Positions 10,453 through 29,876 of a stretch of 44,574 nt of DNA are shown one piece after another; position 1 is the stretch's first letter; each line of letters starts with the position of its first letter. This DNA comes from an uncultured Ectothiorhodospiraceae bacterium (GTDB lineage Bacteria > Pseudomonadota > Gammaproteobacteria > HK1). A program made the translations under genes and the position numbers. Under the pieces are notes generated by a model. The model did not search any database. It had not been told where the DNA came from and saw only the letters and a list, made by a program, of their open reading frames with translations. Location of the stretch: positions 1 through 44,574 of the forward strand of contig CAZPFD010000003.1 of assembly GCA_964585725.1 (NCBI GenBank), read 5' to 3'.

Positions 10453-10468
10453 TGTGAAATGCTTCACA
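10453..10468. promoter_or_regulatory. candidate CRP/Vfr-family (cAMP receptor protein) binding site
   Basis: TGTGA-AATGCT-TCACA is a perfect match to both consensus half-sites with the canonical 6-nt spacer. Left flank is AAA. It lies 32-77 nt upstream of the possible FHA gene starts, in the only AT-rich patch of this intergenic region. Confidence 0.5.
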
Positions 10469-10499
10469 GATTCACGGATTCCGTCCATGGGAATCTACG

Positions 10500-10952
10500 T
10501 TGTTTCTCCAGCCCGGAAGCGCTGCGACAGGGATCACGGACTCGATGACCACTGGCCCTACGGCTGCCTCGTTTGATTTCAACGAAGACGGTTTCGGCCG
10601 GTTGCCCAAGGGCGAACCGGTGGCCGTCTCGCTCAGACCGAACGAGGCGCTCCCCGTGGTCCTCGCCGACCACAAGTGCCACCTGGTCATGGACGGCGGT
10701 CTGGCTCTGCTCGATACCACCGGCCGGCGCCGTGCGCTGCGCGCCGGGAAGAACATCGTCGGCCGCGACCGCCAGTGCGACGTGGTCATCGAGCAGGACT
10801 TCAAGAACGTCTCGCGCAAGCACCTGCTCATAGAAACCGTGGGCGAGTCCCTCGTGCGGCTCACCGACATCTCGTCGCTCGGAACCCTGGTCCCCTGCGA
10901 GTACCTGGCTTCAGGCGACGCGCGAGCCCGTGCCCGAGGCGTAGCGCTCTAA
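10500..10952 (+). CDS. FHA domain-containing protein
   Basis: FHA core GKNIVGRDRQCDVVIEQDFKNVSRKHLLIE...LTDISSLGTLV (GR, SxxH and S-x-G-T motifs). The track start at 10500 is TTG. The first ATG is at 10545 (MTTGPT...), so the start is uncertain. Confidence 0.7.
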   Translation: MFLQPGSAATGITDSMTTGPTAASFDFNEDGFGRLPKGEPVAVSLRPNEALPVVLADHKCHLVMDGGLALLDTTGRRRALRAGKNIVGRDRQCDVVIEQDFKNVSRKHLLIETVGESLVRLTDISSLGTLVPCEYLASGDARARARGVAL

Positions 10953-11284
10953 TCCATGTGCAGGACCCGGCGCGTACCCTCGCGCTCGAAGACCGCTTGG
11001 CGCTCCCCCACCTCGATCAGGCGATATCCGTTGAGCTCCTCCCCCATCTTCACGATCACCCCGCCCACATTGGCCATGGACTCGCTCCCGTCGACCACGG
11101 TGGCGCGCAGCTGCGTCGATCCCACGGACGCGGCGGGCGCACGCGCCCCGCCGCCGGAACCCGCATCCGCCAAGGCGGCGGGCCGAGCGAAGGGATCGTG
11201 CTCCAGCACCACCGGCTGCTCCTCTGCGCCGGCCGCCGTGGCGCCGAGCAACAACGCAAGCGCTACCCTCAACTGCGCCGTCAT
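10949..11284 (-). CDS. small secreted pilus-assembly protein (MshK/PilP-like)
   Basis: 111 aa. Sec signal MTAQLRVALALLLGATAAGA. C-terminal beta-rich LRATVVDG..ANVGGVIVKMGEELNGYRLIEVGERQAVFE resembles the PilP/MshK/GspC-HR fold pattern. Start overlaps the pilO-like gene by 4 nt. Confidence 0.5.
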   Translation of the reverse strand: MTAQLRVALALLLGATAAGAEEQPVVLEHDPFARPAALADAGSGGGARAPAASVGSTQLRATVVDGSESMANVGGVIVKMGEELNGYRLIEVGERQAVFEREGTRRVLHMD

Positions 11285-11859
11285 TCCTCCTCGCCCTCGT
11301 GCGGGCGATAGGACACCACCCGCAGATTCATGTTGAGCTGTGGGCGCGCTGCCCCCTCCGCGATGTGAAACTCCTTCACTACCATCGGGTGCAAGGCGTC
11401 CTCCGCCTGCTGAAGCCAGCCGAAGAGCTGCATGTACGAGCCGGTGACCTCGACGTCGAACGGGATCTCTTCGAACATCAGCACCCGACCGATCGGTCCG
11501 GGTTTGACTCCGACGAGCTGCACTCCGTGCTTCGTAGCCAGCCGGTCGAGCTGACCGATGATGTAGGAGACCATTTCACTCGACTGGAGCTGCGGCGTCT
11601 GTCCGTACAGGGTCTGCCTCAACTGTTCCACTTCCCGCTCGAGTTGACGCACGTGTGCGTCATTAACCACGCGCCGCTGGGAGCGAATCTCCATGGCGGA
11701 GTCGTCGGCGAGACGGTGCAGCCGCACGTATTCCTTGAGCGGTGCCTCGAGCAGGTAGAAGTACGCCGCCGTCACCGTGACCCCCACCACGGAGACGAGC
11801 ATCAGCAGGAGCATCCGCGGCTCGAGACCTTCGAGGATTCGATCGGCGTTCCGGGCCAT
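11281..11859 (-). CDS. PilO/MshJ/GspM-like pilus assembly protein
   Basis: 192 aa. One TM helix (MLLLMLVSVVGVTVTAAYFYLL), a coiled-coil segment, then a ferredoxin-like C-terminus. Positioned after the pilN-like gene. Confidence 0.65.
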   Translation of the reverse strand: MARNADRILEGLEPRMLLLMLVSVVGVTVTAAYFYLLEAPLKEYVRLHRLADDSAMEIRSQRRVVNDAHVRQLEREVEQLRQTLYGQTPQLQSSEMVSYIIGQLDRLATKHGVQLVGVKPGPIGRVLMFEEIPFDVEVTGSYMQLFGWLQQAEDALHPMVVKEFHIAEGAARPQLNMNLRVVSYRPHEGEEE

Positions 11860-11860
11860 C

Positions 11861-12499
11861 TCAGCTCCCGATCACCACCGCCAGAGTGAAGTCGACGACC
11901 TGCAGCGATTCGTACGCGTGCATCCGCGTGTTGAGAACCTTCACCTCCTCGATCACTGGCTGCGCGTTCAGACGCTGGACGAACTCGGCAAGCGCCGAGT
12001 GGTCGCTCGCCTGTGCCCTGATCTCCATGTGCGTGGCCATCTGCCACGTCCTGGTCTCCGAGGTGCGCTCTCCGGCGGGCACGGTGATGAAGTAGCCGGT
12101 GTTGACGGTCCGCGGATCGGCGGCTACGAACTCGCCCGCGCGCCGGAACGTCCAATTCAAGAACCACACCTGGTTATCGAGCGCCCTGTCCACCGCCACG
12201 AAGATGGCGCGCGGCTCGGCGCCGCTGCGCAGCGCCTCGAGCGCTCGCGCCTTCTGCTCCAGCACTTCCCTGGTCGCTCGAAGCTCCTCGAGCGTCGCCT
12301 TTCGCTCCGCTACGAGCGCCCGGTCGGCATCCAGCTCCTCGAGCTCCGCCGTGCGCACCGTGACGCCGAAAGCGAGAAGCGCCTTGGCGACGATCAAACA
12401 GACGAGAACGGCGCCGTACATCCCGGCGAAGAGCTTGAGCCACCGTTTGGTGCGCCGCAAGCGCCGATAGCTGAGTGGGACCAGATCAATCTCAGCCAT
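11861..12499 (-). CDS. PilN-like fimbrial assembly protein
   Basis: 212 aa. N-terminal IDLVPLSYRR resembles the PilN INLLP motif. A single TM helix and coiled coil follow. Overlaps the pilM-like gene by 8 nt. Confidence 0.65.
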   Translation of the reverse strand: MAEIDLVPLSYRRLRRTKRWLKLFAGMYGAVLVCLIVAKALLAFGVTVRTAELEELDADRALVAERKATLEELRATREVLEQKARALEALRSGAEPRAIFVAVDRALDNQVWFLNWTFRRAGEFVAADPRTVNTGYFITVPAGERTSETRTWQMATHMEIRAQASDHSALAEFVQRLNAQPVIEEVKVLNTRMHAYESLQVVDFTLAVVIGS

Positions 12500-13652
12500 T
12501 CTCCGCCCGTCCCCGAAGGGCGCAACCTGCGGCTATGGCGAATCCGGTGACCGGCTCGCTTTCAGGAAGCTCCGTGTGTTCGCTGGCCGGACCGAACGCA
12601 GCCAACGGGTTCAGGATCCGAACCGGCAAGGACAGCATACCGTTGATCAGCGCCTCTACGCCCGGCCATCGGGCGATGCTGCCGAGCAGGTACACCGTAT
12701 CCACCGATCCTCCGCGTGTCTGCGACGCCGTGTACATCAAGACCTTGGTGACCTCCTCGGCCAGCTCGAGCAGCATTGGCTTGACGATCTCGGTCATCGT
12801 GCGGGCGATCTCGGTCGGCGTCACCACATCCTCGTCGCCGTCTGACGCGCGTTCCGATGACAACCCGTACTGATATACGAGATCACGCACCGACGCCGGG
12901 CTCAGCTCCAGCGTGTCTCCGATGCTCGTGGTGATGATCGCCTCGCCGAAGTTCACCTCGCGGTCCAGTATCAAGCGGCGCCCGGAGATGACCGTGAGAT
13001 AAGTCTTCTCTCGGCCGAAGTTGATGACCAGAACCGTATCGAACGTCTCACGGGAATGCATGTACGCAACCAGCCGGTGTATAGCCACCGGCCCTATCTC
13101 GAGGGCGCTCACATTGAGGCCGGCGCTCTCCATCAGGTGCAGGTAGGCGAGAACGTCGGCTCGGCGCACCAGTGCGAGCAGTGCTCCCCTTTCTCCGTCG
13201 ATCTCACTGCGCGTGGAAACGGGCACGTAGTCCATCAGCCATTCGTCCACGGGACCCTCGACGCGATCCATCGCCTGCCTCATGATGGCCTCCGACTCCC
13301 CGAGATTCGACTGGGGCTTGTAGTTGAGTAGGCTGAGCTTGAGCTGCTCGGGCGGCATACAGGTGACGACGTCCCGTCCTGCAAAAGGGTGCCTGGCCAG
13401 AGCTTCCTTCACCAGCGCGCTGAAGGCCCGAGGATTGGATGTCACCTCATCGCGTGCGGTGCGATAGTGGAGGGATGCGGCGGCCCGCACGCGCAGCCGC
13501 TCGTCGCTGGACTCGAGCTGTAGCATATGCAGCCGCTCGTGACCGAGCTCCAGCCCTATCGGACCGCAGCGGTGTCGCGCCGCATTTCCGCGCGCGGCGA
13601 GCCGAACGAATGGACCGTATACACGCCCCAGAGCCTGCGCCGCGGTGCTCAT
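12492..13652 (-). CDS. PilM/MshI-like actin-fold pilus assembly ATPase-like protein
   Basis: 386 aa. Pattern typical of PilM (GLELGHERLHMLQLE..., LNVSALEIGPVAIHRL, VINFGREKTYLTV, VYLLGSIARWPGV). First gene of a pilMNO(P)-like operon. Confidence 0.75.
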   Translation of the reverse strand: MSTAAQALGRVYGPFVRLAARGNAARHRCGPIGLELGHERLHMLQLESSDERLRVRAAASLHYRTARDEVTSNPRAFSALVKEALARHPFAGRDVVTCMPPEQLKLSLLNYKPQSNLGESEAIMRQAMDRVEGPVDEWLMDYVPVSTRSEIDGERGALLALVRRADVLAYLHLMESAGLNVSALEIGPVAIHRLVAYMHSRETFDTVLVINFGREKTYLTVISGRRLILDREVNFGEAIITTSIGDTLELSPASVRDLVYQYGLSSERASDGDEDVVTPTEIARTMTEIVKPMLLELAEEVTKVLMYTASQTRGGSVDTVYLLGSIARWPGVEALINGMLSLPVRILNPLAAFGPASEHTELPESEPVTGFAIAAGCALRGRAENG

Positions 13653-15061: not shown

Positions 15062-15332
15062 CTTGTTCTGGCCGGGCCCGGGAGGTGCCGATCGTTCCCA
15101 GCATATCGGCGCACACCTTGAAATCTTGACGTGTGCGGTTTGCTCCAGTCTCTGTGGATGCGGTGGGAGGCGACCTAAAGTTGAAACTCTCGTCTGACGA
15201 TAAGTTTCGCGGGTACGGCCCGATGCGAACGCACGTCCGATTGCGGACGAGATCGGCACGCAGGAAAATAACGAGTATCAGCCCGGTGCCCGGCGAGGGA
15301 CTCGCCGGACCTCACACACGCCGATCCGCAAG

Positions 15333-15704: not shown

Positions 15705-15707
15705 AGG

Positions 15708-17337: not shown

Positions 17338-19077
17338 TCAGTTGTCTTCCAGATAGAGAACCTGCTGCGTGTCATGGTCGCTGATGACGTGCTCGCACGT
17401 CATCGGGTTCACGGCGATTCCCTGGATCTGCGAGGCACCAAAGGACGCTTCAGCGTCGTACTGACCGAGCAGATTGCCTTCGAAGTCCAAAAAAAAGACG
17501 ATGCCTTGTTTGTCCGCAACCATCAGCTTGTCGGTACCTGCCAGATGCGTGACGCCCCAGGGCTCCGGAGCCAAGCCTGAGACGTCGATCGACTGCTGAA
17601 GGTTCCCATCCTGGTCGACGATATGGACGCCGGCGTTGCTCGCGCCGAGGCCGTCCTTGTCGCCGCTGATCGCCAGATGATTCTCGTAGACGCCGCTCGC
17701 CGTACGGCCGATGTAGGTGATGCCGACGGGACGTTGGGTGAAGGCGCTGGTGGAGAAGAAGCTCTGGACTGCGCCCGCGAGGTCCAGGAAGTACACGCGC
17801 CTCTCGTTCTCCTCCGTGACCGCGAGGTGATCGCGCCAGGCACCGGCTTGGATGTACGCGGCGTCGCGGACGTGATCGGTGGGGGTATCGAGCGTGCTCA
17901 GAGCCGTCCCCGACCTGTCGACCATGCGAAGCTTCTTGTCACCAGTGTCGACCAGCAGCCACGCACCATCCAGCGGTGCGCTCGTCCCGTTGAAGGCGAC
18001 GCAGTCCGCCAGAAACGCGACTCCCCAGACGTCGCCGGCCCCGAGAGCGGACGTGGAGAACGAGCCGCTCTCCTGGTCGGGGACGAAGTCGGCGCTGCAC
18101 ACGGGGGCCGGCGGCTGCGGAAAGTCGCAGGTTCCGCATTCGCACCGGTAAGTGAGCGTGAGCTTGGGTCTGAGAGCGCATTGGGCGCTGTCGCCGCTGT
18201 AGTGGCGCTTCTCTTTGTTGCCGGGGTCGGGCTGCGCGCGCAGGATCAAGCCTTGATTGGGGTAAGCGCCGTCCACCCAGCCCTGAACCGCGGCGAGGAC
18301 GTCCAGGCTCTTCCAGCCGACGCTCGAGGCCGAGTACGAGTCGAGAGCCGTCGCCGCGTAGTCGCCCCCTGGGGTCGTCCAGTTGTTGAGACCGTCGTAT
18401 TCCTGCCAGGTCGCCCCGCTGTTTGCGGTTCCCGTACCTTCCACCCAGTCGCGCACCATTCGGTGCACCTCCACCGTAGCCGGATCACCGGTGTTCTGAT
18501 GAAGGTACAGCTCGAGCTGCGCCGACTCCACGCTTGCACCGGGTGCAAGACCGGACAGGTCGAAGCGCAGTAGACTGCGCCGGTCGCCGCCCGGAGGGCC
18601 CTCCGGGTCGATGCGGAGGTCTGCGTCAGCTCCGTAGTTGGCGTCCGACTGCTCGGAGCTCAGGTACGTGTCCCTTCCCGTCGTCCGTCCGGGCTGCAAG
18701 GTGATGGTGCGCGGTGCGTCGAAAACGGCAACGTTCTCCTTGCGCACGGTGCGCTGCGTCCCGTCCGCGAGCTGCCCGCTCGCCGTGATCTCCACCGGGG
18801 AGCCGTCGGCGGGGGTGATGGCCGCGCTGTAGGCATGCGGGCCGAAGTCGGTCGCGCCCAGGCTCGGGTAGCCCGTGCATGCGCTCTGATTCGCGAGCCA
18901 GCGCTGGTGTTGCAGGCCCGCCTCCGCCACATAGCGGGCCTGGTCGATCCCGGTCTCGGTCGCCGCGCGGCGCACGTGCATCGCGCCCTCCCGGCTCAGC
19001 AGAAATGCGACGCTCGCGATGAGCGCGAGGCCCAGCACCACCGGGAGCAGCAGGAACCCGCCCTGTCGCCCGCTCAC
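17338..19077 (-). CDS. large GspK/PilX-like minor pseudopilin with DNRLRE-like beta-sandwich and C-terminal beta-propeller-like repeats
   Basis: 579 aa. N-terminus RQGGFLLLPVVLGLALIASVAFLL resembles the PilX_N/GspK hydrophobic segment (no Glu5). Residues ~124-312 read DTYLSSEQSDANYG...RRSLLRFDLSGLAPGASVESAQLELYLH...WVEG..GATWQEY. The C-terminal ~250 aa have repeating strand patterns. Overlaps the upstream pilin gene by 4 nt. Confidence 0.6.
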   Translation of the reverse strand: MSGRQGGFLLLPVVLGLALIASVAFLLSREGAMHVRRAATETGIDQARYVAEAGLQHQRWLANQSACTGYPSLGATDFGPHAYSAAITPADGSPVEITASGQLADGTQRTVRKENVAVFDAPRTITLQPGRTTGRDTYLSSEQSDANYGADADLRIDPEGPPGGDRRSLLRFDLSGLAPGASVESAQLELYLHQNTGDPATVEVHRMVRDWVEGTGTANSGATWQEYDGLNNWTTPGGDYAATALDSYSASSVGWKSLDVLAAVQGWVDGAYPNQGLILRAQPDPGNKEKRHYSGDSAQCALRPKLTLTYRCECGTCDFPQPPAPVCSADFVPDQESGSFSTSALGAGDVWGVAFLADCVAFNGTSAPLDGAWLLVDTGDKKLRMVDRSGTALSTLDTPTDHVRDAAYIQAGAWRDHLAVTEENERRVYFLDLAGAVQSFFSTSAFTQRPVGITYIGRTASGVYENHLAISGDKDGLGASNAGVHIVDQDGNLQQSIDVSGLAPEPWGVTHLAGTDKLMVADKQGIVFFLDFEGNLLGQYDAEASFGASQIQGIAVNPMTCEHVISDHDTQQVLYLEDN

Positions 19078-20009
19078 GGCCCGCCTCCGCTGCGTACGCG
19101 CGCGTGCAAGCTCACCACCCGCCCATCGTCGGTGAGCTCCAGCGTGATGTCGACCAGCGTCGCACGTTCACCGGGCGCGCGCGGCAAGCGTTCGACTCGA
19201 AACAAGGCCACACCCTCGGCGAGGGCCCGCTCGGTATAGTCGCTGCCGTCGCCGGCGCCGACATTGGGCATTCGCTCCAGCAGCACGTCGCCGTCCAGCC
19301 GGTAGACGACGTAGTCGAGCCAATCCTCGCTGACCAGCCCGTCCTCGTCGTCGTCGTCGCTGCTGCCTTCGTCGGTCTGTCCGTCCTCGTCGTCGTCGAC
19401 CCCGGCGATGCCCGGCTGTCCGTCGGCGTTGGCGTCGCGGTCCATGTCCTCGTCCACCGCCCCGTCGCCGTCGTCGTCGATCCCGTTGCGGGGATCCTCG
19501 TTCTGAGCGCCGTCCTCATCGTTGTCCTTCCAGTTGGCGTCGTCGACGAAGCCGTTTCCGTTGTCGTCGACTCCACAGATCCCGGGGCAGAAGTCGTTGT
19601 TGTTGTCGCGGCCCGGGTCCTCGTCGATGCGCTCGCGCTCGCCGGGATCCTTGATGCCGTTGTCGTTGTCGTCGAAGAAGTCCTTGTCGTTGTTGGCGTC
19701 GGCGAAGCCGTCGCCGTCGCGGTCGAGCGTCGGATCGAGAGTCACCGCGAGCACATCGCGCACCGACTCGCTGTAGGGCGTGGCTGGGTTCTCCGGGAAC
19801 GGCAGATGGAGCCGGCCGGCCCTCACGGCATCGAGCATGCGCTGCAGGGCGAACTGGGCCTCGCGGTTGAGCGCGTTCCGCGCCTGCGCCTCGGCCCGCG
19901 CTTCCAGGGCGCGGCCCACGATGGCGCCCAACGACAGCGCCAGGATGGCCGCGATGGCCACGGCGACCAGCAGCTCCATCAAAGTGAAACCGCTAGCCCG
20001 CATTTTCAC
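19074..20009 (-). CDS. prepilin-type N-terminal methylation domain protein with Asp-rich thrombospondin type-3-like Ca-binding repeats
   Basis: 311 aa. Leader and cleavage motif MKMRASG|FTLMELLVAVAIAA. Residues ~96-224 are DxDxDG-type repeats (DRDGDGFADANNDKD, DDNGNGFVDD, DDDGDGAVDEDMDRDANADG, DDDEDGQTDE). Confidence 0.75.
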   Translation of the reverse strand: MKMRASGFTLMELLVAVAIAAILALSLGAIVGRALEARAEAQARNALNREAQFALQRMLDAVRAGRLHLPFPENPATPYSESVRDVLAVTLDPTLDRDGDGFADANNDKDFFDDNDNGIKDPGERERIDEDPGRDNNNDFCPGICGVDDNGNGFVDDANWKDNDEDGAQNEDPRNGIDDDGDGAVDEDMDRDANADGQPGIAGVDDDEDGQTDEGSSDDDDEDGLVSEDWLDYVVYRLDGDVLLERMPNVGAGDGSDYTERALAEGVALFRVERLPRAPGERATLVDITLELTDDGRVVSLHARVRSGGGP

Positions 20010-20060
20010 CGGCGCGCGCAGCCTTGGCGCAAGCGGCGGCTCGCGGCGCGTGGAGGAGCG

Positions 20061-20501
20061 TCAACGGCTGGTGAGGGTTTCGAACGCGTGCGCGGTGCCT
20101 TCGATCTCGACCCGCAGCCACAGCAGATCATCGTCGACGCCGGTGAACGGGTCGTCGTCGCCATCGGCGTTATCCCCGTCATAGCGGGAGAGAAACACGA
20201 GCCGGCGCCGGTCCGCGCCGGCGGAGTCGGAGTAGGAGGTAGGTGTCGACGGATTGCCGGCGGCGCTGGCGGCAGTGCTCAGGTCGGCCACGGGCTCCGC
20301 CAGCACGTCCTCGACCTTGGCCATCAGATGGTAGTGATCAGCGATGTGCGACTCGTGCACGCCGCTCGCAGTAAGGCCCCCGTTCAGCGCCGTCAGTGCC
20401 GGGGCAATGCTGATCGCAACCAGCACCGTCGCCACCAGCACCTCCACGTAGGAGAGACCGGTTTGGCGAAGCATGCTCCGGCGGCTCGGATGGGGCGTCA
20501 T
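20061..20501 (-). CDS. minor pseudopilin (GspI-like size)
   Basis: Start chosen at ATG 20501 (ATGA overlap with the upstream stop). Alternative ATG at 20474. Prepilin motif QTG|LSYVEVLVATVLVAISIA. The track ORF extension to 20645 overlaps the gspH-like gene. Confidence 0.65.
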   Translation of the reverse strand: MTPHPSRRSMLRQTGLSYVEVLVATVLVAISIAPALTALNGGLTASGVHESHIADHYHLMAKVEDVLAEPVADLSTAASAAGNPSTPTSYSDSAGADRRRLVFLSRYDGDNADGDDDPFTGVDDDLLWLRVEIEGTAHAFETLTSR

Positions 20502-21034
20502 TGCACCGTGATGCGTCCCACGACCGGCGTCACCGTGATCGTGTGGGCGGCTCCATCGTCGTTTACAGTGACAGTCCCGCTGACCAGCGGGTCGAGATCG
20601 CTCGGGGCGACCGGCTCGCCGCGTTCGTCGAAGGCTACGGCCCACTCCTCGCTGCCGCCGCCCTGATACAGGAACGACGCCACGACCTCCACGCCGCCGG
20701 TGAAGAACCCCTCCGTTACGTCGATATCGTAGATTCTCTTGCTCATCGGGTGGCGAACTTCAAAATGTTCGGTCGGAGGTACGGTTCCCGTATCCAGCCA
20801 GAACACCCGCACGCGTCGCTTGTTCGCCGTCACGCGCACGCCATGGTGTATCCCGGTGCGGCGCGCCTCGCTGCGTGCAAAACGCAGGGCCTCGACGACC
20901 TCGCTCGACGCGAGCGTCAATTTGTTGCCCTTCGACGTCGAAAGCCCCGGCAGGGCGACCAGGGCCACGACGCTCAGAATCAGCGCGACCAGCAGCAGCT
21001 CGGCGAGGGTGAATCCCCTGCACCGCGTGCGCAT
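20498..21034 (-). CDS. GspH/FimT-like minor pseudopilin
   Basis: 178 aa. MRTRCRG|FTLAELLLVALILSVVALVALP, followed by ASSEVVEALRFARSEARR, typical of GspH/FimT. Confidence 0.75.
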   Translation of the reverse strand: MRTRCRGFTLAELLLVALILSVVALVALPGLSTSKGNKLTLASSEVVEALRFARSEARRTGIHHGVRVTANKRRVRVFWLDTGTVPPTEHFEVRHPMSKRIYDIDVTEGFFTGGVEVVASFLYQGGGSEEWAVAFDERGEPVAPSDLDPLVSGTVTVNDDGAAHTITVTPVVGRITVQ

Positions 21035-21071
21035 CGACGATGACCGGCATCCGCCGCCGGGCGAGCGACCC

Positions 21072-21641
21072 CTACAGATCCTCGGTCAGGGTCCCGTCGC
21101 TCAGCGTCTGACCGTCGTTGGCGATGAACCGGCCGGTCTTGAGGTAGAACTTCCAACCCGTATTGTCGTTGGGCGTCCCATCGGCGGCCGCTACCGTGAT
21201 ATCGTCCTCGGCGATGTCGACGGTCACGTCCTGGTCCAGGGTTTCATCCATCGTGAACGGGTTCGGCGGCAGGGCGCTGGTCTTGATATAGGGCCCGAAG
21301 CGATGCGTCGCATCCTTCACCGCGCTCACCGCGCCCGATTTGTCGGTGTACTGCGTGAGCTGCTTGACGAAGGCGGCGGCTGCCTCCGCTGCCGAGCCGA
21401 CGGGACCCGACCCGTCCTCTTTAATAGCCCCCGGGTAGTTGGCGTTGTGCTGGTGGTAATAAAGTTCGACGGCATCCCGCAGCTGCGCCAGATCCGTCTT
21501 CACGGTCGCAACCTTGGCGTCCTCGGTGGAGGCACCGAACTGCGGCACGACGATAGCCGCCAGAATCGCCAGAATGATCACGACGATCAGCAGCTCGACG
21601 AGCGTGAATCCTCGGTGCTTGACCCGCATTCTGTGGCTCAT
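21072..21641 (-). CDS. major (pseudo)pilin, GspG-like
   Basis: Start at ATG 21641 (MSHRMRVKHRG|FTLVELLIVVIILAILAAIVVPQF). Alternative ATG at 21629. TVKTDLAQLRDAVELYYHQHNANYPG resembles the GspG core. The track ORF extension to 22001 is unsupported. Confidence 0.8.
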   Translation of the reverse strand: MSHRMRVKHRGFTLVELLIVVIILAILAAIVVPQFGASTEDAKVATVKTDLAQLRDAVELYYHQHNANYPGAIKEDGSGPVGSAAEAAAAFVKQLTQYTDKSGAVSAVKDATHRFGPYIKTSALPPNPFTMDETLDQDVTVDIAEDDITVAAADGTPNDNTGWKFYLKTGRFIANDGQTLSDGTLTEDL

Positions 21642-22172: not shown

Positions 22173-23294
22173 TCACCCCACCGCGCGTGAGAGCTTGAAG
22201 ATAGGCAGTATAAGAGAGGCGACCACCAGGCCCACGACGACTCCCATCACCAGGAGCATGACCGGTTCGACCATCCTCGAGAGGTTGGCCAGCTTGCGCA
22301 TGAGCTCCCTCTCGTAGAAGGTGGCGATTCGCGTCATGACCACCGACAGGTTTCCGGACTCATCGCCCGTTGCGATCATCTGTCGGACCAACGGTGGCAC
22401 GAAGACCGTATCCTGGAACGCCCCGGAAATACCCTTTCCTTCGTGCACCTGGCGCTGCACGCGTTCCAGGAACCGGCGAAACTCGGCGTTGTTCACAATC
22501 TCGTGGCAGGCGCGCAATGCGTCCGGGACGCTGACGCCGTTGGCGATGGACAGACCCATCACACGCAGAAACTGCGACAAGTATATTTGTGCGAATACGT
22601 CTCTCAGTACCGGGACGCGCAGCTTCAAGCGGTCGATCGCGGCGGCTCCTTCCGGCCGGCTGATCCATCGATATGCGAGGATGGCTGCGGCTATGACGCC
22701 GCTCAGAACGAACGCCCAGTATTCTCGCAGAAACTCGCTCGCGGCCATCAAGAAGATCGTCGTGAACGGAAGCTGATCGGCGATGTCTGAAAAAAGGTCG
22801 GCAAACTTGGGGAACACGACCACCAGAACGAAGAGCACGACAGCCACCGAGAACACCGCCAGAAAGGCCGGGTAGTAGAAGGTGCTGAGGAGGGAAGCGC
22901 GAAGCTGCATGTTCTTCTCCTCCATCTCCGTCAGCCGCTGCAGGACGGCAATCAGGATGCCGCTGCGCTCCCCCGCCTCGATGAGATTCACGTAACTGCG
23001 TGAAAAGATCCGCGGATGGCGCCCTATGGCTTGCGAGAAGGAGAGACCGGATGCGATGTCCTCTCGGAGCGTTTGCACGACTTCGCGCAAACGGACGTTG
23101 TCGGTCTGCTGCGCGAGGGAGTCGAGACCCGAGTGAAGGGACGTGCCCGTCTCGAGCATCAGGGTGAGCCGCTCGAGGAAGAACATTCGATCCCGGGCGG
23201 AGACGCGCCGCGGCCCGATGCGCAGCTCGCGAAACGCAGGCCGGACCTGCCTGGCCTCGTCTTGGCGCTGGGCGGTTTTGAACTCGATCGCCAT
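22173..23294 (-). CDS. type II secretion / type IV pilus platform protein (GspF/PilC family)
   Basis: 373 aa from ATG 23294, 5 nt after the ATPase stop. Duplicated T2SSF pattern (FFLERLTLMLETGTSLHSGL...; FLRVMGLSIANGVSVPDAL...). The 935-aa track ORF is an upstream extension that runs across the ATPase gene in another frame. Confidence 0.9.
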   Translation of the reverse strand: MAIEFKTAQRQDEARQVRPAFRELRIGPRRVSARDRMFFLERLTLMLETGTSLHSGLDSLAQQTDNVRLREVVQTLREDIASGLSFSQAIGRHPRIFSRSYVNLIEAGERSGILIAVLQRLTEMEEKNMQLRASLLSTFYYPAFLAVFSVAVVLFVLVVVFPKFADLFSDIADQLPFTTIFLMAASEFLREYWAFVLSGVIAAAILAYRWISRPEGAAAIDRLKLRVPVLRDVFAQIYLSQFLRVMGLSIANGVSVPDALRACHEIVNNAEFRRFLERVQRQVHEGKGISGAFQDTVFVPPLVRQMIATGDESGNLSVVMTRIATFYERELMRKLANLSRMVEPVMLLVMGVVVGLVVASLILPIFKLSRAVG

Positions 23295-23299
23295 GGCGG

Positions 23300-25363
23300 T
23301 CAGCTGTGGATCACGCGCGTGACCTCGTCGATGGTGGTCTTGCCATCGAAAGCCTTGCCGATGCCGTCGGAGTACAGGGATTTGATGCCGCGCTTTGCTA
23401 TGTGCCGCGCCAGCGCATCCCGCGACGGGCTCGAGACCATGAGCCGCTGAGTTTCGGCGTCGCACTCGAAAATCTCGTGGATGGCGATGCGGCCCTTGTA
23501 CCCGGAGTCGTAGCACGACGGACAGCCGCGCCCGCGGACGAGGCGCATCTTCTCCGATACTTCGAGGCCGCGCTGAGCCAGTGACTCGGGCGATGCCACG
23601 TAGGAGGTCTTGCACTCCGAACAGACGGTTCGCACCAACCGCTGGGACATCACGCCTATGAGCGCGGACGAAAGCAGGAAAGGCTCTACCCCCATGTCGA
23701 GCAACCGTGTGATGACCCCGGCCGCGTCGTTGGTGTGCAGCGTGGACAGCACGAGGTGACCGGTGAGGGCGGCCTGCACGGCGATCTGAGCGGTCTCCCG
23801 CTCGCGTATCTCTCCGACCATGACGACGTCCGGATCCTGGCGAAGCACGTGCTTGAGCATCTTGGCGAAACCGAGCCCGATATCGTCCTTGATCTGGTTC
23901 TGGTTCACGAGATCGAGCTGGTACTCCACTGGATCCTCGATGGTGACGATGCTCTTCTCGATGCTGTTCAGATAGCTGAGGCCCGCATAGAGCGTCGTCG
24001 TCTTGCCGCTGCCGGTCGGGCCGGTGACGAGTATGAGTCCGTGCGTGTAGGCGAGGAGGCGTCTGAACGTCGCCAGGTTCTGTTCGCTCAGCCCGAGCCG
24101 GTCGATGTCCATCACCGAGCGTGCCTTGTCCAGCACTCGCAGGACGACCTTCTCGCCGAAGATGCCCGGAAGCGAGCTGAAGCGCAGATCGATGGTGCGC
24201 CCCTGGGTGTAGACCTGCATTCGCCCGTCCTGGGGCATGCGGCGCTCGGCGATGTCGAGATTGGCCATGACCTTGAGGCGCGATACCAGCGATGGGTGGA
24301 TCTCGATGGGCAGCTCCATCGTCTGATAAAGCACGCCGTCGATACGGAATCGGATGCGACAGCGAGAGCGAGACGGCTCGACGTGGATATCGCTGGCGCC
24401 GTCTCGAATCGCTCTTTGCACCAGGCCATTGACCAGGTTGATGACCGGGCTTCCGGAAGCCATCTCGTCGATGGCGGAGAAGTCCCCCGGTATCCGGCCA
24501 TCGACCAGCTCGAAGTCCGTTTCCGAGTCGAGCTGGCCGATGTATTCGGAGAGGTTGTAGTCGTCCTTGGCGGGCGCGCCTATGACGTCGAGGATGTCCT
24601 CCGTGCACGCGAGAACGGGGCGGGTCTTGCAGCCGGTGAGCTCCTCCACCGTGTCGAAGCTGGGGATGGCGTGGGGGTCGGCGCACGCGAGATAAAGCGC
24701 GCCGCGCACCTTGAACAGAGGCGCGAGCCGAAGTCGCTTGGCGATGTCGGGGCTGAGCAGCTCGACCACCTCCGGATCGAACAGCCCGGGGCGAAGGCGA
24801 ACAAAGGGGAGCATGAACTGCTCGCTCAGCACGGTCAGCAGCTCCGCCTCCTTGAGCAATCCCCGCTCGAGCAGAATGTTTCCGAGCCGCTTGCCGGTGG
24901 TGCGCTGAACGTCCAGAGCGTCGTTGACGGCCTCCTCGTTGAGGAGGCCGCGCTCTATCAGCCGCTCCCCGAGCTTCCAAGGCTGCTCCGGGCCGAGCGG
25001 CTGCATGCCGGCGTCGGTTCCGGAGCCGAGCTCCTTTTGGTCGGAGAGCGTGATGTAATGCTGCAGTCCCGTGAGCCTGAAGACATCACGGACGGTGGCG
25101 TTTGCGTGTGCGATCTTCAAGTCACCGCCGATGCGGGTTACGCGATCCTGGGTATCCAGCAGCACCTCCAGCGCCGCGCTGTTGACCAGCGTCACGTTCA
25201 CGAAATCCAGAACCAGATGGATGTCGCCGGCCTTGATGCAGGCGTCCATGGTCTCGGTCAGATTGGCGAGATCACTGCGATCGGTGAGTGATCCCGGAGG
25301 GGCCAGGTAGGTGACAAGCCCGATGCGGGAATGGACGACCTCAGACACGGGCCCTCCCCGCAT
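23300..25363 (-). CDS. STAS-MshEN-GspE/PilB-family secretion ATPase
   Basis: 687 aa. Walker A GPTGSGKTTT, Asp/Walker B DPDVVMVGEIRE, tetra-Cys CSECK...CPSCYDSGYKGR. Residues ~10-110 are SpoIIAA/STAS-like (HLVLDFVNVTLVNSAALEVLLD...VRDVFRLTGL). Residues 130-182 are two 24-aa MshEN motifs. Confidence 0.9.
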   Translation of the reverse strand: MRGGPVSEVVHSRIGLVTYLAPPGSLTDRSDLANLTETMDACIKAGDIHLVLDFVNVTLVNSAALEVLLDTQDRVTRIGGDLKIAHANATVRDVFRLTGLQHYITLSDQKELGSGTDAGMQPLGPEQPWKLGERLIERGLLNEEAVNDALDVQRTTGKRLGNILLERGLLKEAELLTVLSEQFMLPFVRLRPGLFDPEVVELLSPDIAKRLRLAPLFKVRGALYLACADPHAIPSFDTVEELTGCKTRPVLACTEDILDVIGAPAKDDYNLSEYIGQLDSETDFELVDGRIPGDFSAIDEMASGSPVINLVNGLVQRAIRDGASDIHVEPSRSRCRIRFRIDGVLYQTMELPIEIHPSLVSRLKVMANLDIAERRMPQDGRMQVYTQGRTIDLRFSSLPGIFGEKVVLRVLDKARSVMDIDRLGLSEQNLATFRRLLAYTHGLILVTGPTGSGKTTTLYAGLSYLNSIEKSIVTIEDPVEYQLDLVNQNQIKDDIGLGFAKMLKHVLRQDPDVVMVGEIRERETAQIAVQAALTGHLVLSTLHTNDAAGVITRLLDMGVEPFLLSSALIGVMSQRLVRTVCSECKTSYVASPESLAQRGLEVSEKMRLVRGRGCPSCYDSGYKGRIAIHEIFECDAETQRLMVSSPSRDALARHIAKRGIKSLYSDGIGKAFDGKTTIDEVTRVIHS

Positions 25364-25381: not shown

Positions 25382-27652
25382 TCATCGCCGCGGGCCCTCG
25401 CGCTCGCCGCCTTCCACACGCTCTCTCAACTCGGCAGCTTCCGCCGGGAGTTGACCGGGTGGCGCTGCCGGGTTGGCGTCGCCGACGCCGAATAGATACT
25501 CCGCCAGAGGGCGCGGCCTTCCTATGGCGAACCCCTGCACGAAGTCGACGCCGACGTCGCGCAGGCGACCCAGCATCCACGTTTCTTCCACGAACTCGGC
25601 GATCGTTTGAAGACGCATCACGTGTCCGATGCGGTTGATGGCGTCGACCATCACGTAATTGATGGGATCCTCGATCCCGCGGATCAGCGAGCCGTCGATC
25701 TTCAGATAGTCCATCGGAAGCTGCTTGAGACTCGAGAAGGAGCTGACGCCCTCGCCGAAGTCATCCAAAGAGAAACGGCAACCGCGCTCACCGAGAACCT
25801 GCATGAAGCGAACCGCGGCACCCAGGTTGGAGATGGCGGCCGTTTCGGTGATCTCGAAGCATATGCGCTCGGGTGCGACCCCCGAATCCTCGAGGGCGCG
25901 CATGGCGAACTTGAGAAATTCTTCCTCCGAGAACGATTGGCGGGAGATGTTGATGGCGCATTGCAGCTCGAAACCGGTGGCGGCCAGCGCCTCGAGGGTG
26001 TTGCGGATGACCCAACGATCCACCGCCGGCATGGACCGGTAGCGCTCGGCGGCCGGGATGAATCGAGTGGGGGCGGTGATTCGGCCGGCTTCGTCCAGCA
26101 TGCGCACCAAGACCTCGCAATGCGGCACCGCAGGGGCGCCCTCGGACAAAGGCTTTATCGGCTGCGCATAGAGCTGAAGACGATCCTCCTCCAGTGCGCG
26201 CTGGATTCGGGGCACCCATTGCATCTCCTGGTGGAACGCGGCGTACGTGGCGTCGTCGCGACGGTGCAGGTAGGCGCGGTTGTATCCCTGCTGCTTGGCG
26301 ATGCGGCACGCGGTATCCGCAGTGCTGAGGATCTCCGACACCGGACCGGAGTCGGCGGTGACGGTTGCGACACCCACGCCTGCGCTGATGTCGAAGGGTT
26401 TGCCATCCCAATGGAAACGGTGCTGGTTGATGGCCCTGATGAGCTTCCGTGCAATGAGGACAGCCCGTTTGGCCGGACAGTCTTTCAGCAGGACGGCGTA
26501 CTCGTCGTCCCCCAGGCGCGCCAGCACGTCGTCGCTGCGCATTCGCGCCTCCAGGAGCGATGCCACCTGCCGCAGCAGCTCGTCTCCGGCGGCGGATCCG
26601 CAGGTGTCGTTCACGATCTTGAAGCCGTCGAGATCGAGAAACAGCAGGGCGTGCTCTGCATCCGCACTGCGAGCGAGGAGCACGCTCTCGGTCAGGCGCT
26701 GCTCGAAGCCGCGTCGATTCAGCAGACCCGTGAGCGCGTCGCGGCTCGCCTGCAAGACGGTCGCGGCCTGCTCGGCGAGAACCTCCAGCAGCTTCCTGTC
26801 ACCGTTGCTGAAGTCCGCCCGCCCCGGGAGGTTCACGATGGCGATGAGCCCGAGTACATCGGATCGTGTCGCCAGAATGGGCGAGACCAGCAGCTTCACG
26901 GGGAAGGGCGAAGAGGCGTGCTGCCAGGGCGAGTCCGCCGCATCGTTGGCGACGATGCTGGCCCGCGCGTCCTTCACGCGGCGATACAGCGGGTGACGCA
27001 GCGCAGGCCATACCTCCCACAGCCAGGCGGAGTCGGACTCGCCTTCGTCGCGCTGGCGCTTGATCTCCAGCTTGTCCCCCGGAACCGCGAGAACGGCGCC
27101 GTCCACGCCGAGGTAGGCGATGCAGTCCTCCACCAGCCGGGTCAGCACCTGGCGTCCGTGCTCGGGCTCGTACTTGTGAACCTGCTCCTCCGTCGTGTAG
27201 ACGAGATTGAGCTCCTCGCAGCGCGCCGTGAGCTCGGCCGCCATGCTGTCCAGCTCCAGATTCAACCGGTACTCCTGAAGCAGGCACGACCCGATGCCGG
27301 CGAGGGCGCATTCCAGCCCCTGCTCTGCGGGCGGCCCCGCGGGCTGCGCGCCGGAGTCCACGAGCACCGCGATGGCCGCGACCTGCTCCTCCGGCTCGGC
27401 CTCCAGCGCTTTCACCAGGAGCCGCTTGCCCGACCCGATGTCGCGCGCGAGCGCGGTGCCCCTCTCCATCGCTTGCGAAACGCACAGAGCCGCCTCGAGC
27501 TCGGACCTACAAGGGGTATCCGCCACCCACACGGGCCGTCCCGTCCGGTCGCAGACGGCGAACCCGATCACTTTCCCCAAGGCGGGATCGATGAGCAGCT
27601 CGCAGAGGCGTCGATACTTGTCCGGGTCCAGCGCGCCGAGCGGACGATCCAT
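25382..27652 (-). CDS. GAF-GGDEF(degenerate)-EAL protein, probable c-di-GMP phosphodiesterase
   Basis: Start at ATG 27652 (ATGA overlap with the receiver gene stop). The track ORF extends further. GGDEF position reads LGDDEY. EAL domain has EVLVR, AINIS, EITE, DDFGEGVSS, KIDGSLI and QGF. Confidence 0.85.
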   Translation of the reverse strand: MDRPLGALDPDKYRRLCELLIDPALGKVIGFAVCDRTGRPVWVADTPCRSELEAALCVSQAMERGTALARDIGSGKRLLVKALEAEPEEQVAAIAVLVDSGAQPAGPPAEQGLECALAGIGSCLLQEYRLNLELDSMAAELTARCEELNLVYTTEEQVHKYEPEHGRQVLTRLVEDCIAYLGVDGAVLAVPGDKLEIKRQRDEGESDSAWLWEVWPALRHPLYRRVKDARASIVANDAADSPWQHASSPFPVKLLVSPILATRSDVLGLIAIVNLPGRADFSNGDRKLLEVLAEQAATVLQASRDALTGLLNRRGFEQRLTESVLLARSADAEHALLFLDLDGFKIVNDTCGSAAGDELLRQVASLLEARMRSDDVLARLGDDEYAVLLKDCPAKRAVLIARKLIRAINQHRFHWDGKPFDISAGVGVATVTADSGPVSEILSTADTACRIAKQQGYNRAYLHRRDDATYAAFHQEMQWVPRIQRALEEDRLQLYAQPIKPLSEGAPAVPHCEVLVRMLDEAGRITAPTRFIPAAERYRSMPAVDRWVIRNTLEALAATGFELQCAINISRQSFSEEEFLKFAMRALEDSGVAPERICFEITETAAISNLGAAVRFMQVLGERGCRFSLDDFGEGVSSFSSLKQLPMDYLKIDGSLIRGIEDPINYVMVDAINRIGHVMRLQTIAEFVEETWMLGRLRDVGVDFVQGFAIGRPRPLAEYLFGVGDANPAAPPGQLPAEAAELRERVEGGEREGPRR

Positions 27653-28050
27653 CACGCGCAGGGAGCTCCTTCGGCGGGTGGGCCCGCGAAGTGCTCGTCG
27701 AGGCGGGCGTGCAGCCGGCGCAAGCTCAACGGCTTCTCGAGCAGCTCGGTATTGGGGAGAAAACGCACCCACTCGCGCGCCGCGAGCTCGGGACGCGCGG
27801 TGATGACCAGCGTGAGCGGCTGAGCGCCGGGAAACTCGCGGTGCATCGCCTCGCAAAGAGCGCGACCGTCCAGGCGCGGCATCTCGATGTCAGTGATGAC
27901 GACATGAAAGCTCTCCTCCCTCAGCTTGCGCAACGCCTGCTCGCCGTTGGAGGCCGTCTCCACCGTGTAACCCTTGCCTTCGAGCCCGAGCCGTATCACC
28001 CGCACGACGTGAGGTTGATCGTCCACGAGAAGTATCCGCCGGCTGGTCAA
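27652..28050 (-). CDS. stand-alone response regulator receiver protein
   Basis: 132 aa. ILLVDDQPHVV, VVITDIEMPRLDG, LTLVITA. Start overlaps the kinase stop by 4 nt. Confidence 0.85.
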   Translation of the reverse strand: MTSRRILLVDDQPHVVRVIRLGLEGKGYTVETASNGEQALRKLREESFHVVITDIEMPRLDGRALCEAMHREFPGAQPLTLVITARPELAAREWVRFLPNTELLEKPLSLRRLHARLDEHFAGPPAEGAPCA

Positions 28051-29876
28051 ACGGCTTCTCTCAGCAGGATGGGCGTTTTCTTGAGCTCGATCGTGAACTC
28101 ACTCCCCTGACCCGGCGCGCTTTCCAGCCTGATCCGCCCCTGATGCAGCTCGACGATCTCCTTGGCGAGCGCGAGACCCAGGCCGTGGCCCGTCCTCTCA
28201 CGCACGTCTTCGCGATCGGAGCGGAAGAACTTGCTGAATATGCTTGCCTGATCCTCGGGAGCGATCCCGATCCCCGTGTCGCGCACGGAAATGAGGATGT
28301 GATCCTCCGTTTCGGTGGCGGACAGCAAGACCTGGCCGTTGGGCCGGTTGTATTTGACCGCGTTGGTCAGCAGATTGTTGATTGCAATCCGAAGCAGTCT
28401 CTTGTCGACGTGCACGGCGCTCAGCTGATTGGGCACGTCGAGCTTCATATCGAGCCCCCGATCGGCGGCGCTGCGCGCGACGTTGTCGAACGCGTCCTTG
28501 AGCAGATCCCCCAACCTGATGCGCTGGCGCTCCAGAGAGACGCTGCCCATCTCGATCTCCGCGATATTGAGCATGTTGTTGATCAACATGCCGACCAGCT
28601 CCACTTCGTCCTTGATGACGTTGCCAGCCTCCACGCGCACGGCATCCGAGTCCTTGTCCCCATCGAGCAGCATCTCGCCGTACATGCCGATGACGTGCAG
28701 CGGCGTCTTCAGCTCGTGGGCCAGGCGGGCCACAAACTCCTTGCGCGCCTTCTTGGCCAGCGACTCCGCGGTGACGTCGTGGAACACGATCATGGTGCCG
28801 TAGATTCGGGAACCGCCGCTCGGCGAGAACAGCGGATAGGCGCTCACCGCGATCTCCCTGTCGGGCGCATGCTCCGGGATCATCCGAATGCTCCCCATCT
28901 CGTTGCGGCGCGCGGTGCTGCGCATGAAGTTCGAGACAAAGGCGAGAAGCTCGGGTGACTTGCACCACTCGTTCGGTTTGAGTCCGGCGATAGTGTCGGC
29001 CTCGATGCCGATCAGCGCGCTCAGCTTGCGGTTCGCGAAAGTGACGGCGCCCGACTCGTCCATTACCACCACCCCCTCGGGCAGGGACTGGAGCACGGAC
29101 TCGATGCGCGCCTTCTGGTACGAAAGGACCTTGGCCGAAGCCACCTTCTCGGAGTGCTCGGACTCGAGCGCGCAGATGCGGGCCTCCGCCGCTTTCACGA
29201 TGCGGTTGAAATGCCGGATGAACTCCCCGATCTCGCCCGAGGCCTCCAGCTCCACCGTGCGCACCACGTTGTCGTCGACGATCGACTGAATGCGATCGCT
29301 CGCCTCGCGCAGGGGCTGCACCTCGCGCTTGACCAGGTAGTAATAGAGGGGCGCGAGCAGGAATACCGGCAGGGCCAGCCATGCGAAGTACGGCAGTTCC
29401 TGGCTCACGAGGGCCCAGCCGGGCTCGACGTACCCCACGCGTACGTATCCCTGCAGCTCGCCGCCGTCGAGCACGGGGGCGTGAAACTCGCGGAACTCGC
29501 GCCCACCGCGGACGTCGGCGATCTCGCGTTCTCCGAACCAGGACGAGGGTTCGCCCGGCAACGCCAGCGCGGGAACGATCACACCCGGCGCCGTAACCTC
29601 GAGCAGGTCCTCGCCGTCGGGGCGCGACACCACGGCGTAGGCGAAGTCGGGGTTTCCCTGAGTGGACTTGACCAGCGCCAGCGGGCCTTGCTCGCCCTCA
29701 TCCGGGATGAGCTGCGCCAGGGACATGCTGGAGAGCAGGCGCGCCAGGCTCACCCCCTGAACGCGAATCTGAGAGAGCCGAGAGGAACGGTGGGACTCGA
29801 ACGAGACACCGATGATGAGCGCGATCACGAGCAGTGACGACGCGACCATCATCAGGCCAAGACGCTCGCTTTTCAT
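28047..29876 (-). CDS. sensor histidine kinase (periplasmic sensor-HAMP-PAS-HisKA-HATPase)
   Basis: 609 aa. Two TM helices flank a periplasmic region of about 150 aa. H-box LAHELKTPLHVIGMYGEML, N-box NNLLTNAVKYN, G1 DTGIGI, G2 GHGLGLALAKEIV. Confidence 0.85.
   Translation of the reverse strand: MKSERLGLMMVASSLLVIALIIGVSFESHRSSRLSQIRVQGVSLARLLSSMSLAQLIPDEGEQGPLALVKSTQGNPDFAYAVVSRPDGEDLLEVTAPGVIVPALALPGEPSSWFGEREIADVRGGREFREFHAPVLDGGELQGYVRVGYVEPGWALVSQELPYFAWLALPVFLLAPLYYYLVKREVQPLREASDRIQSIVDDNVVRTVELEASGEIGEFIRHFNRIVKAAEARICALESEHSEKVASAKVLSYQKARIESVLQSLPEGVVVMDESGAVTFANRKLSALIGIEADTIAGLKPNEWCKSPELLAFVSNFMRSTARRNEMGSIRMIPEHAPDREIAVSAYPLFSPSGGSRIYGTMIVFHDVTAESLAKKARKEFVARLAHELKTPLHVIGMYGEMLLDGDKDSDAVRVEAGNVIKDEVELVGMLINNMLNIAEIEMGSVSLERQRIRLGDLLKDAFDNVARSAADRGLDMKLDVPNQLSAVHVDKRLLRIAINNLLTNAVKYNRPNGQVLLSATETEDHILISVRDTGIGIAPEDQASIFSKFFRSDREDVRERTGHGLGLALAKEIVELHQGRIRLESAPGQGSEFTIELKKTPILLREAV

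Follow-up and report, generated by a model that had tools for sequence, protein, structure and literature searches.

The window examined in this work is a 44.5-kb stretch of DNA, positions 1 to 44,574 of contig CAZPFD010000003.1 from an uncultured Ectothiorhodospiraceae bacterium. Within a tightly packed minus-strand operon it carries the gene of an assembly ATPase of the T2SSE family, accompanied by genes for a histidine kinase, a response regulator, a cyclic di-GMP (c-di-GMP) enzyme and the parts of a pilus-like filament (Table 1). The N-terminal segment of the ATPase is a genuine STAS domain of the SpoIIAA/RsbV type, fused to the N-terminus of a protein that continues with an MshEN domain and the ATPase core.

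The N-terminal STAS domain

In the first-pass annotation, made from the letters of the window, the N-terminal ~110 residues of the ATPase had been described as a STAS domain. The segment was placed at 25034-25336, which corresponds to residues 10-110, and the peptide quoted for it comprises residues 47-106. This assignment was borne out by profile searches and by structure prediction. Both Pfam STAS models matched above their gathering cut-offs: against the full protein and the isolated domain, respectively, PF01740 (STAS) gave 37.6 and 41.5 bits (cut-off 22.6) and PF13466 (STAS_2) 31.3 and 35.4 bits (cut-off 29.2). The profile of 42 family N-termini retrieved SpoIIAA (1auz, E 3.5e-9) and RsbV from the PDB, the E-values of the SpoIIAA/RsbV matches spanning 3.5e-9 to 1e-5. 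The cut-offs of two NCBIfam models were not reached: TIGR00377 (anti-sigma-factor antagonist) gave 42.2 bits with the full protein and 45.6 bits with the domain (cut-off 53.45), and TIGR02886 gave 34.5-37 (cut-off 114.75).

Residues 1-112 were modelled by AlphaFold2 with a predicted local distance difference test score (pLDDT) of 92 and a predicted template modelling score (pTM) of 0.82. The model has strands at residues 10-14, 17-21, 49-53 and 81-85 and helices at residues 29-44, 62-77 and 89-98. Its best Foldseek matches were SpoIIAA (1thn_B, template modelling score (TM) 0.80, root-mean-square deviation 1.6) and then RsbV, and the 30 PDB matches obtained at E <= 1e-3 were STAS proteins nearly throughout. 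Lower ranks were occupied by MlaB (rank 27) and by the STAS domains of SLC26/SulP transporters (ranks 28-49, TM 0.55-0.65).

The gene can be read from the ATG at 25363 or from a GTG at 25348, which lies five codons after it and gives a product of 682 residues. Because the GTG is preceded by GGGGAGGG, a strong match to the Shine-Dalgarno sequence, and because the 91% identical NCBI protein P0001, named 'STAS domain-containing protein' by NCBI, begins at the GTG-equivalent position (MSEVV), the GTG appears more likely to be the true start. From either codon the whole STAS domain is retained. A start further downstream, which would delete the STAS domain and which had been named as a possible refutation of the STAS assignment, was rejected. 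Residues 9-38 are strongly conserved among 121 homologues (G15 in 116 and P22 in 118 of them), the GC content at third codon positions is 0.77 over codons 1-110, and the next in-frame Met after the start is M39, which is located within helix 1 of the STAS domain. The conservation of residues 9-38 across these homologues indicates that the STAS domain is translated.

The MshEN domain and the ATPase core

The STAS domain had been thought to stand at the position where related ATPases have an N1E or an MshEN domain. This part of the first-pass annotation had to be abandoned, since an intact MshEN domain follows: the NCBIfam model of the MshE-type c-di-GMP motif, NF053729, matches residues 130-182 with 56.4 bits (cut-off 38), and the match to Pfam MshEN (PF05157) spans residues 183-261. 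Residues 130-233 align with the MshE-N structure 5htl (E 1e-13). The two 24-residue c-di-GMP motifs are KLGERLIERGLLNEEAVNDALDVQ (residues 130-153) and RLGNILLERGLLKEAELLTVLSEQ (residues 159-182). Both fit the consensus of Vibrio cholerae MshE, tandem RLGxx(L/V/I)(L/V/I)xxG(L/V/I)(L/V/I)xxxxLxxxLxxQ motifs with a 5-residue spacer (PMC5013675), except that motif 1 begins with K instead of R. Throughout the family the residues of both motifs show little or no variation, and as judged from the motifs the MshEN domain is predicted to bind c-di-GMP.

In the ATPase core all catalytic motifs could be located: the Walker A motif at residues 448-456, the Walker B motif/Asp box at 513-521 and the His box at 539-546; the tetracysteine motif is formed by C581, C584, C614 and C617. 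The alignment of residues 118-684 to PilB of Geobacter (5tsg/5zfr, E ~1e-135) spans all 588 residues of the latter, and residues 1-117 are covered by no solved PilB, GspE or PilF chain in the PDB comparison. The protein scored 560.2 with the PilB equivalog model TIGR02538 (cut-off 675.65) and 557.8 with the GspE equivalog model TIGR02533 (cut-off 630.25), below the cut-off in both cases.

The AlphaFold2 model of the full-length protein (pTM 0.53) consists of three well-folded modules parted by low-confidence linkers. The STAS domain (residues 10-105) and the MshEN domain (residues 130-262) each have a pLDDT above 90, the linker between them (residues 111-129) has a pLDDT of ~43, and a second disordered linker (residues 264-301) precedes the ATPase. 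The disordered STAS-MshEN linker of ~20 residues differs in length and composition among the homologues. According to the model the protein is built as beads on a string, with two regulatory heads, STAS and MshEN, in series.

Spread of the fusion

Homologues were surveyed with the full-length query using clusters of 90% identity, of which the best 120 were taken; the family thus comprises at least 120 clusters, which also gives a lower bound for the spread of STAS-T2SSE fusions, a point raised together with the first-pass annotation. All of these 120 clusters are 636-704 residues long, are 53-91% identical to the query and cover 93-100% of it, and precomputed STAS, MshEN and T2SSE matches were present in almost all clusters. 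The names given to these proteins at source include 'STAS domain-containing protein', 'PilB' and 'TadA', and their sources include metagenome-assembled genomes of Gammaproteobacteria, Ectothiorhodospiraceae, Candidatus Thiodiazotropha and Myxococcota. A fusion from Ideonella (Burkholderiales) was also among the matches listed in a scan of species-representative genomes. Residues G15, T18, L20, P22, C42, D53, L65, G79, G80 and T98 of the STAS domain are nearly invariant. The STAS-MshEN-T2SSE layout is widespread, not rare, and the conservation of the STAS domain makes a regulatory role very probable. Public annotation already displays this combination of domains; the novelty lies in its biological reading and not in its detection.

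With the 130-residue N-terminus as the only query, a word-indexed search for homologues gave no match, and the full-length protein had to be used instead. In an exhaustive phmmer search the N-terminus yielded 822 matches, 77 of them at E <= 1e-10. These were mostly short contig-end fragments, of little use for counting architectures.

The split form

For comparison of gene neighbourhoods 80 PilB-like loci were drawn from species-representative genomes with generic Walker-type patterns; they represent a sample, not a census. In seven Planctomycetota genomes of the lineages Phycisphaerae, Pirellulales and Tepidisphaerales (loci L005, L006, L007, L009, L010, L013 and L059) the orthologous MshEN-T2SSE ATPase has no STAS domain, and a separate STAS gene of ~111 codons lies directly upstream on the same strand. 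In L009 this gene overlaps the start of the ATPase gene by 4 nucleotides. Three of the split STAS proteins were scored with Pfam STAS and gave 48-71 bits. All seven keep the canonical D-S-x-G/A-L motif as well as a C-terminal helix, which is replaced by the linker in the fused proteins. Both c-di-GMP motifs are present in the ATPase of L007, the sequence of which was inspected.

A neighbour-joining tree was constructed, without bootstrap support, from the MshEN-ATPase region of the 80 PilB-like proteins. Apart from the inclusion of L071, for which no STAS was detected, the split and fused STAS-associated ATPases form one clade in this tree, and the fused ATPases are a subclade within it. Of the other 71 sampled loci, 66 fall outside the clade and have no nearby STAS gene on the ATPase strand, and four were too short for the tree. 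Judged from these sequences, the relation between split and fused forms is that of a gene-fusion pair of the classic 'Rosetta stone' type, which argues that the STAS domain and the ATPase work together physically.

The ATPase that groups with the STAS-associated clade and has no detectable STAS comes from Tepidisphaerales (L071, 10001-12700). Its 2.7-kb match begins at residue 97 of the query; the protein may hold a different or diverged N-terminal extension.

Residue 62

Profile alignment to 1auz placed Ser62 of the window protein on Ser58, the phosphorylated residue of SpoIIAA. The first-pass statement that a Ser occupies the phosphorylatable position is therefore correct for this protein, though Gly is found there in a part of the family: the 121 fused sequences have Ser in 105 cases and Gly in 16 (13%), and no Thr, Asp, Glu or other residue. 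By Fitch parsimony on a neighbour-joining tree, Ser and Gly were exchanged independently at least 11 times. Both residues serve well as helix N-caps, and the pattern at position 62 is more in keeping with such a constraint than with an obligatory phospho-acceptor. The fused form has lost the hydroxyl group repeatedly and never shows Thr, Asp or Glu, which speaks against phosphorylation being obligatory there. A Ser or Thr is broadly conserved at the phospho-site position of STAS proteins in which phosphorylation is undemonstrated; in MlaB the equivalent residue is Thr52, which belongs to the MlaB-MlaF interface, and there is no evidence that this residue is phosphorylated (PMC7367683).

The operon and neighbouring genes

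The ATPase gene is preceded in the operon by three signalling genes and followed by the genes of the filament system (Table 1). The stop codon of the c-di-GMP enzyme gene lies 18 nucleotides before the ATG of the ATPase. The N-terminal ~170 residues of this enzyme, located before the GAF domain, had no Pfam match. In the fused loci the region is conserved between the GGDEF-EAL and the HD-GYP versions of the enzyme (70-124 bits), and this uncharacterised domain could be a contact point for the receiver or for the STAS domain.

Table 1. Features of the STAS-ATPase gene and of its surroundings in the window
Feature	Position	Strand	Basis
Whole gene, STAS-linker-MshEN-linker-T2SSE assembly ATPase, 687 residues from ATG	23300..25363	minus	open reading frame and domain matches
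STAS fold, residues 10-105	25049..25336	minus	Pfam above gathering cut-off; AlphaFold2 pLDDT 92; Foldseek TM 0.80 to SpoIIAA
Ser62 codon (AGC), N-terminus of helix 2	25178..25180	minus	profile alignment to 1auz
Flexible linker, residues 106-129	24977..25048	minus	full-length AlphaFold2 pLDDT ~43; variable, gapped columns
Two tandem 24-residue MshEN c-di-GMP motifs, residues 130-153 and 159-182, 5-residue spacer	24818..24976	minus	NF053729, motif match, MshE alignment
Complete MshEN domain, residues 130-262	24578..24976	minus	Pfam PF05157; AlphaFold2 pLDDT >90
T2SSE ATPase core, residues 303-683	23315..24457	minus	PF00437, 449 bits
Membrane PAS-HisKA-HATPase_c histidine kinase, first operon gene	28047..29876	minus	Pfam; synteny; H-box conserved 15/15
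Single-domain response regulator, 4-nucleotide overlap with kinase gene	27652..28050	minus	Pfam Response_reg
c-di-GMP enzyme: unknown N-terminal domain, GAF, GGDEF, EAL	25382..27652	minus	Pfam
T2SSF/PilC-type platform protein, directly downstream of ATPase	22173..23291	minus	Pfam T2SSF 181 bits
Major pilin (start ~21629), three minor pilins, pilin-like CBM96 protein	17338..21629	minus	Pfam N_methyl, GspH, CBM96; N-termini
HisKA-receiver-adenylate/guanylate cyclase, between CBM96 gene and pilM	15708-17306	plus	
Receiver, between CBM96 gene and pilM	15333-15704	plus	
GGDEF protein, between CBM96 gene and pilM	13862-15259	minus	
PilM, PilN, PilO and 111-residue PilP-position gene, same filament system	10949..13652	minus	Pfam PilM_2, PilN, PilO
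FHA open reading frame	10500-10952	opposite to PilMNO genes	29 bits

The pilin-like CBM96 protein, encoded after the minor pilins (17338-19077, minus strand), combines an N-terminal hydrophobic segment with a CBM96/disaggregatase-repeat domain. It is 579 residues long in the window and 503-1531 residues long in the relatives, and is a candidate carbohydrate-binding tip adhesin. Between the CBM96 gene and pilM the window has extra signalling genes (13862-17306); several relatives hold only a GGDEF gene there. No secretin gene was found anywhere in the window, whereas the relatives carry one after PilM-N-O and a small gene; in the corresponding part of the window (10345-11284) there is instead the FHA open reading frame. 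Either the secretin is encoded elsewhere or the filament system of the window is incomplete.

The likely genes of the window, called by codon-position GC content, were scanned for an RsbW-type kinase and for a PP2C/SpoIIE phosphatase, and no match was obtained, in agreement with the first-pass annotation. That annotation had also pointed to an FHA protein as a possible phospho-reader. The FHA open reading frame does exist, but because it has no counterpart in any related locus it is unlikely to be part of the system, and it was rejected as a partner.

Related loci

Besides the window, 14 STAS-associated loci were compared, five of them with full Pfam gene tables. The five tabulated loci share the order kinase, an optional receiver together with a GAF-GGDEF-EAL or GAF-HD-GYP protein, STAS-ATPase and T2SSF, followed by four pilins, the CBM96 protein, an optional GGDEF gene, PilMNO and the secretin. 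PilM and T2SSF are present in nearly all STAS-associated loci. In one of these (L001, 12057-14903, on a 2.9-Mb ENA contig) the T2SSF gene beside the STAS-ATPase is split by a DDE transposase gene, leaving fragments of 347 and 75 residues.

In the window and in 14/14 related loci a homologous PAS histidine kinase is encoded directly upstream; the homologues of the related loci gave 134-675 bits. Kinases in the vicinity of other PilB genes reached 25-105 bits and mostly lay downstream of the platform gene. The H, N, G1 and G2 boxes of the kinase are canonical in all 15 sequences, which lends no support to the idea of a degenerate kinase turned to phosphorylating Ser. Nine of the 14 related loci, like the window, have both the receiver and the GAF c-di-GMP enzyme. 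The other five (L002, L005, L006, L007 and L009) have neither, and in them the kinase directly precedes the STAS or STAS-ATPase gene; no receiver domain was detected at E <= 0.01 in the fetched flanks of these five. As the kinase is present in every locus and the receiver and GAF enzyme are optional, the invariant signalling core consists of the kinase, the STAS domain and the c-di-GMP-binding ATPase. Genes of the RsbW or PP2C/SpoIIE type are not listed in the five tabulated loci, and no RsbW-only or SpoIIE gene lies between kinase and ATPase in the other nine.

Possible roles of the STAS domain

The gene product is probably the assembly ATPase of an MSHA/type IV pilus-like adhesive filament system, the parts of which would be the platform protein, the pilins, the carbohydrate-binding pilin-like protein and PilMNO. 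In the reading that we prefer, with confidence and doubt about evenly balanced, the STAS domain is a tethered protein-interaction input which, together with c-di-GMP sensing by MshEN, gates or positions the ATPase and is linked to the kinase pathway. What the analysis shows is which domains are present and in which order, that the tether is flexible, that the protein is conserved, that split and fused forms are related and that the gene neighbourhood is kept. From the analysis we infer that the STAS domain may bind a partner, which partner this might be, and in which direction the effect would go. As a protein-protein interaction module it would answer to co-encoded signalling proteins. The candidate partner that is always present is the membrane PAS histidine kinase; where they are encoded, the single-domain response regulator and the GAF c-di-GMP synthase/phosphodiesterase are further candidates. 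Binding of c-di-GMP by MshEN and a second signal received by STAS might jointly set the engagement of the hexamer with the platform and the polymerisation of pilin.

In the fused proteobacterial form this regulation would not depend on phosphorylation of the serine equivalent to that of SpoIIAA, and most likely the STAS domain of this form is not an obligate phospho-switch. Its mode of action would resemble that of MlaB on MlaF, or of HsbA and BgrV on diguanylate cyclases, rather than the SpoIIAA phosphorylation cycle. MlaB binds the MlaF ATPase, which requires MlaB (PMC7367683), and HsbA and BgrV are STAS proteins that control diguanylate cyclases (PMC8457831). A direct coupling, in which the STAS domain is itself the receiving end of the co-encoded histidine-kinase pathway and binds the GHKL domain of the kinase or the phosphorylated receiver, seems improbable. 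Binding to the GHKL domain would mirror the binding of SpoIIAA to SpoIIAB. If such a coupling exists, a two-component sensor would be wired directly to the pilus motor, without a transcription step, and by extension PilB/MshE-type ATPases might be the missing direct effectors of free STAS outputs such as HmpV of Nostoc.

Several points weigh against a tethered input that works without phosphorylation. The neighbour-joining tree behind the split/fused relationship has no bootstrap support and was made from sampled loci, and the synteny of the kinase is a functional link to the operon, not to the STAS domain specifically. The phospho-site Ser is kept in 87% of the fused proteins and, within the canonical D-S motif, in 7/7 split forms, and the closest structures found by Foldseek are phosphorylatable antagonists bound to their kinases; because of these two facts phospho-control by an unlinked kinase is possible. 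The first-pass annotation had proposed that the STAS domain places filament assembly under partner-switching or phosphorylation control. What holds of this proposal is that the domain is real, conserved and very probably regulatory; its phosphorylation part found no support in linked genes of the RsbW or PP2C type, and Ser was exchanged for Gly at least 11 times. In its classical form, partner switching would rely on a Ser kinase of the RsbW/SpoIIAB type and on a PP2C phosphatase, both encoded elsewhere in the genome, and the phosphorylation state of Ser62 would switch the ATPase. We regard this as unlikely, while noting that the alignment of Ser62 with SpoIIAA Ser58, the top fold matches (SpoIIAA/RsbV complexed with their kinases), the Ser in 105 of the 121 fused proteins and the D-S-x-G/A-L motif in 7/7 split proteins all speak for it. 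So does a precedent from Nostoc, where the HmpU-W system acts on type IV pilus-dependent motility through the STAS protein HmpV, the effector of which is undefined (PMC6495340). On the other side, partner-switching genes normally adjoin each other, but no HATPase_c_2-only kinase or SpoIIE/PP2C gene was among the scanned genes of the 44.5-kb window, in the five tabulated loci, or between kinase and ATPase in the other nine. Independent Ser-to-Gly changes and the complete lack of Thr, Asp and Glu at position 62 also disfavour it, as do a TIGR00377 score of 42-46 bits, under the cut-off of 53.45, and the broad conservation of Ser/Thr at this position in STAS proteins without demonstrated phosphorylation (PMC7367683).

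The STAS domain could alternatively serve docking or assembly with no signalling input, by anchoring or orienting the ATPase on PilM/T2SSF or by promoting assembly of the hexamer. Such a role, which would be analogous to the binding of GspL by the N1E domain of GspE, is improbable. It would suit the location of the STAS domain at the extreme N-terminus on a flexible tether, where secretion ATPases bear docking domains, and the presence of PilM and T2SSF in nearly all STAS-associated loci; moreover, stable association of MlaF with the membrane complex needs MlaB (PMC7367683). However, MshEN and the remaining PilB-like N-terminus are still there, the most constant and clade-specific neighbour is a sensor kinase, not a structural part, and the 66 other sampled PilB-like loci have no nearby STAS gene on the ATPase strand. 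Binding of nucleotides or other small ligands has been reported for some STAS domains, and among the fold matches of the window STAS are those of SLC26/SulP transporters (ranks 28-49). That the domain senses a nucleotide, an anion or a lipid and signals allosterically to the ATPase is nevertheless very improbable, since the domain resembles the antagonist type (TM 0.80) far more closely than it does the STAS domains of transporters (TM 0.55-0.65), a ligand-binding motif was not identified in it, and the split/fused relationship and the operon context point toward protein partners.

Significance

Assembly ATPases under c-di-GMP control, MshE and PilB among them, are a main switch between the motile and the attached lifestyle. 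The clade described here shows that motors of this kind can bear a second, independent regulatory head. Together the split form of Planctomycetota and the fused form of Proteobacteria and Myxococcota predict a direct STAS-ATPase partnership, and the fusion pair makes the PilB-type ATPase a candidate target for STAS outputs with undefined effectors, for example HmpV. Whether a SpoIIAA-type STAS domain can work without its kinase and phosphatase is a further question to which this system lends itself. No description of the fusion came up in a literature search for STAS in connection with MshE, MshEN, PilB or GspE. In its main text, the MshEN survey reports MshEN fusions to ATPase, glycosyltransferase 'and other domains', with STAS unmentioned (PMC5013675).

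Comparison with known systems

The order of genes in the msh operon differs from that in the window. In its domains the window ATPase is like MshE of V. cholerae and other MshEN-T2SSE ATPases: it has the tandem 24-residue motifs with the 5-residue spacer (PMC5013675) and a T2SSE core with Walker A and B motifs, His box and zinc tetracysteine motif, and its gene lies in a pilin/platform/PilMNO cluster adjoining c-di-GMP enzymes. It is unlike MshE in having an extra STAS domain of ~105 residues and a linker in front. The likeness to PilB (Geobacter metallireducens 5tsg/5zfr; PilF of Thermus) extends over residues 118-684, which match a whole PilB. Scores below the TIGR02538 and TIGR02533 cut-offs and the extra residues 1-117 set it apart from PilB and GspE.

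The window STAS has the same fold as SpoIIAA and RsbV (TM 0.78-0.81, profile E-values of 1e-8 to 1e-9) and a Ser at the phospho-site. In contrast to the free-standing proteins, it is fused to an ATPase, with a linker replacing the C-terminal helix; cognate kinase, phosphatase or sigma factor genes are absent from its neighbourhood, and 13% of the homologues have Gly for Ser. As in the MlaB-MlaF pair, where MlaB acts by direct binding (PMC7367683), the STAS domain is devoted to a single ATPase. Unlike here, MlaB is a separate protein and MlaF is an ABC ATPase, not a T2SSE hexamer, and the structural likeness between the STAS domains is lower (TM ~0.6). With HsbA-HsbD and BgrV-BgrR (PMC8457831) and with HmpU-W of Nostoc (PMC6495340) the window system has in common a STAS protein or domain as a non-sigma output and a connection to c-di-GMP or pilus regulation. 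Those systems combine a free STAS protein with a dedicated kinase and phosphatase, whereas no such dedicated partners are linked to the window STAS-ATPase, and its STAS domain is fused to the ATPase, the related loci having STAS either fused or in the adjacent gene.

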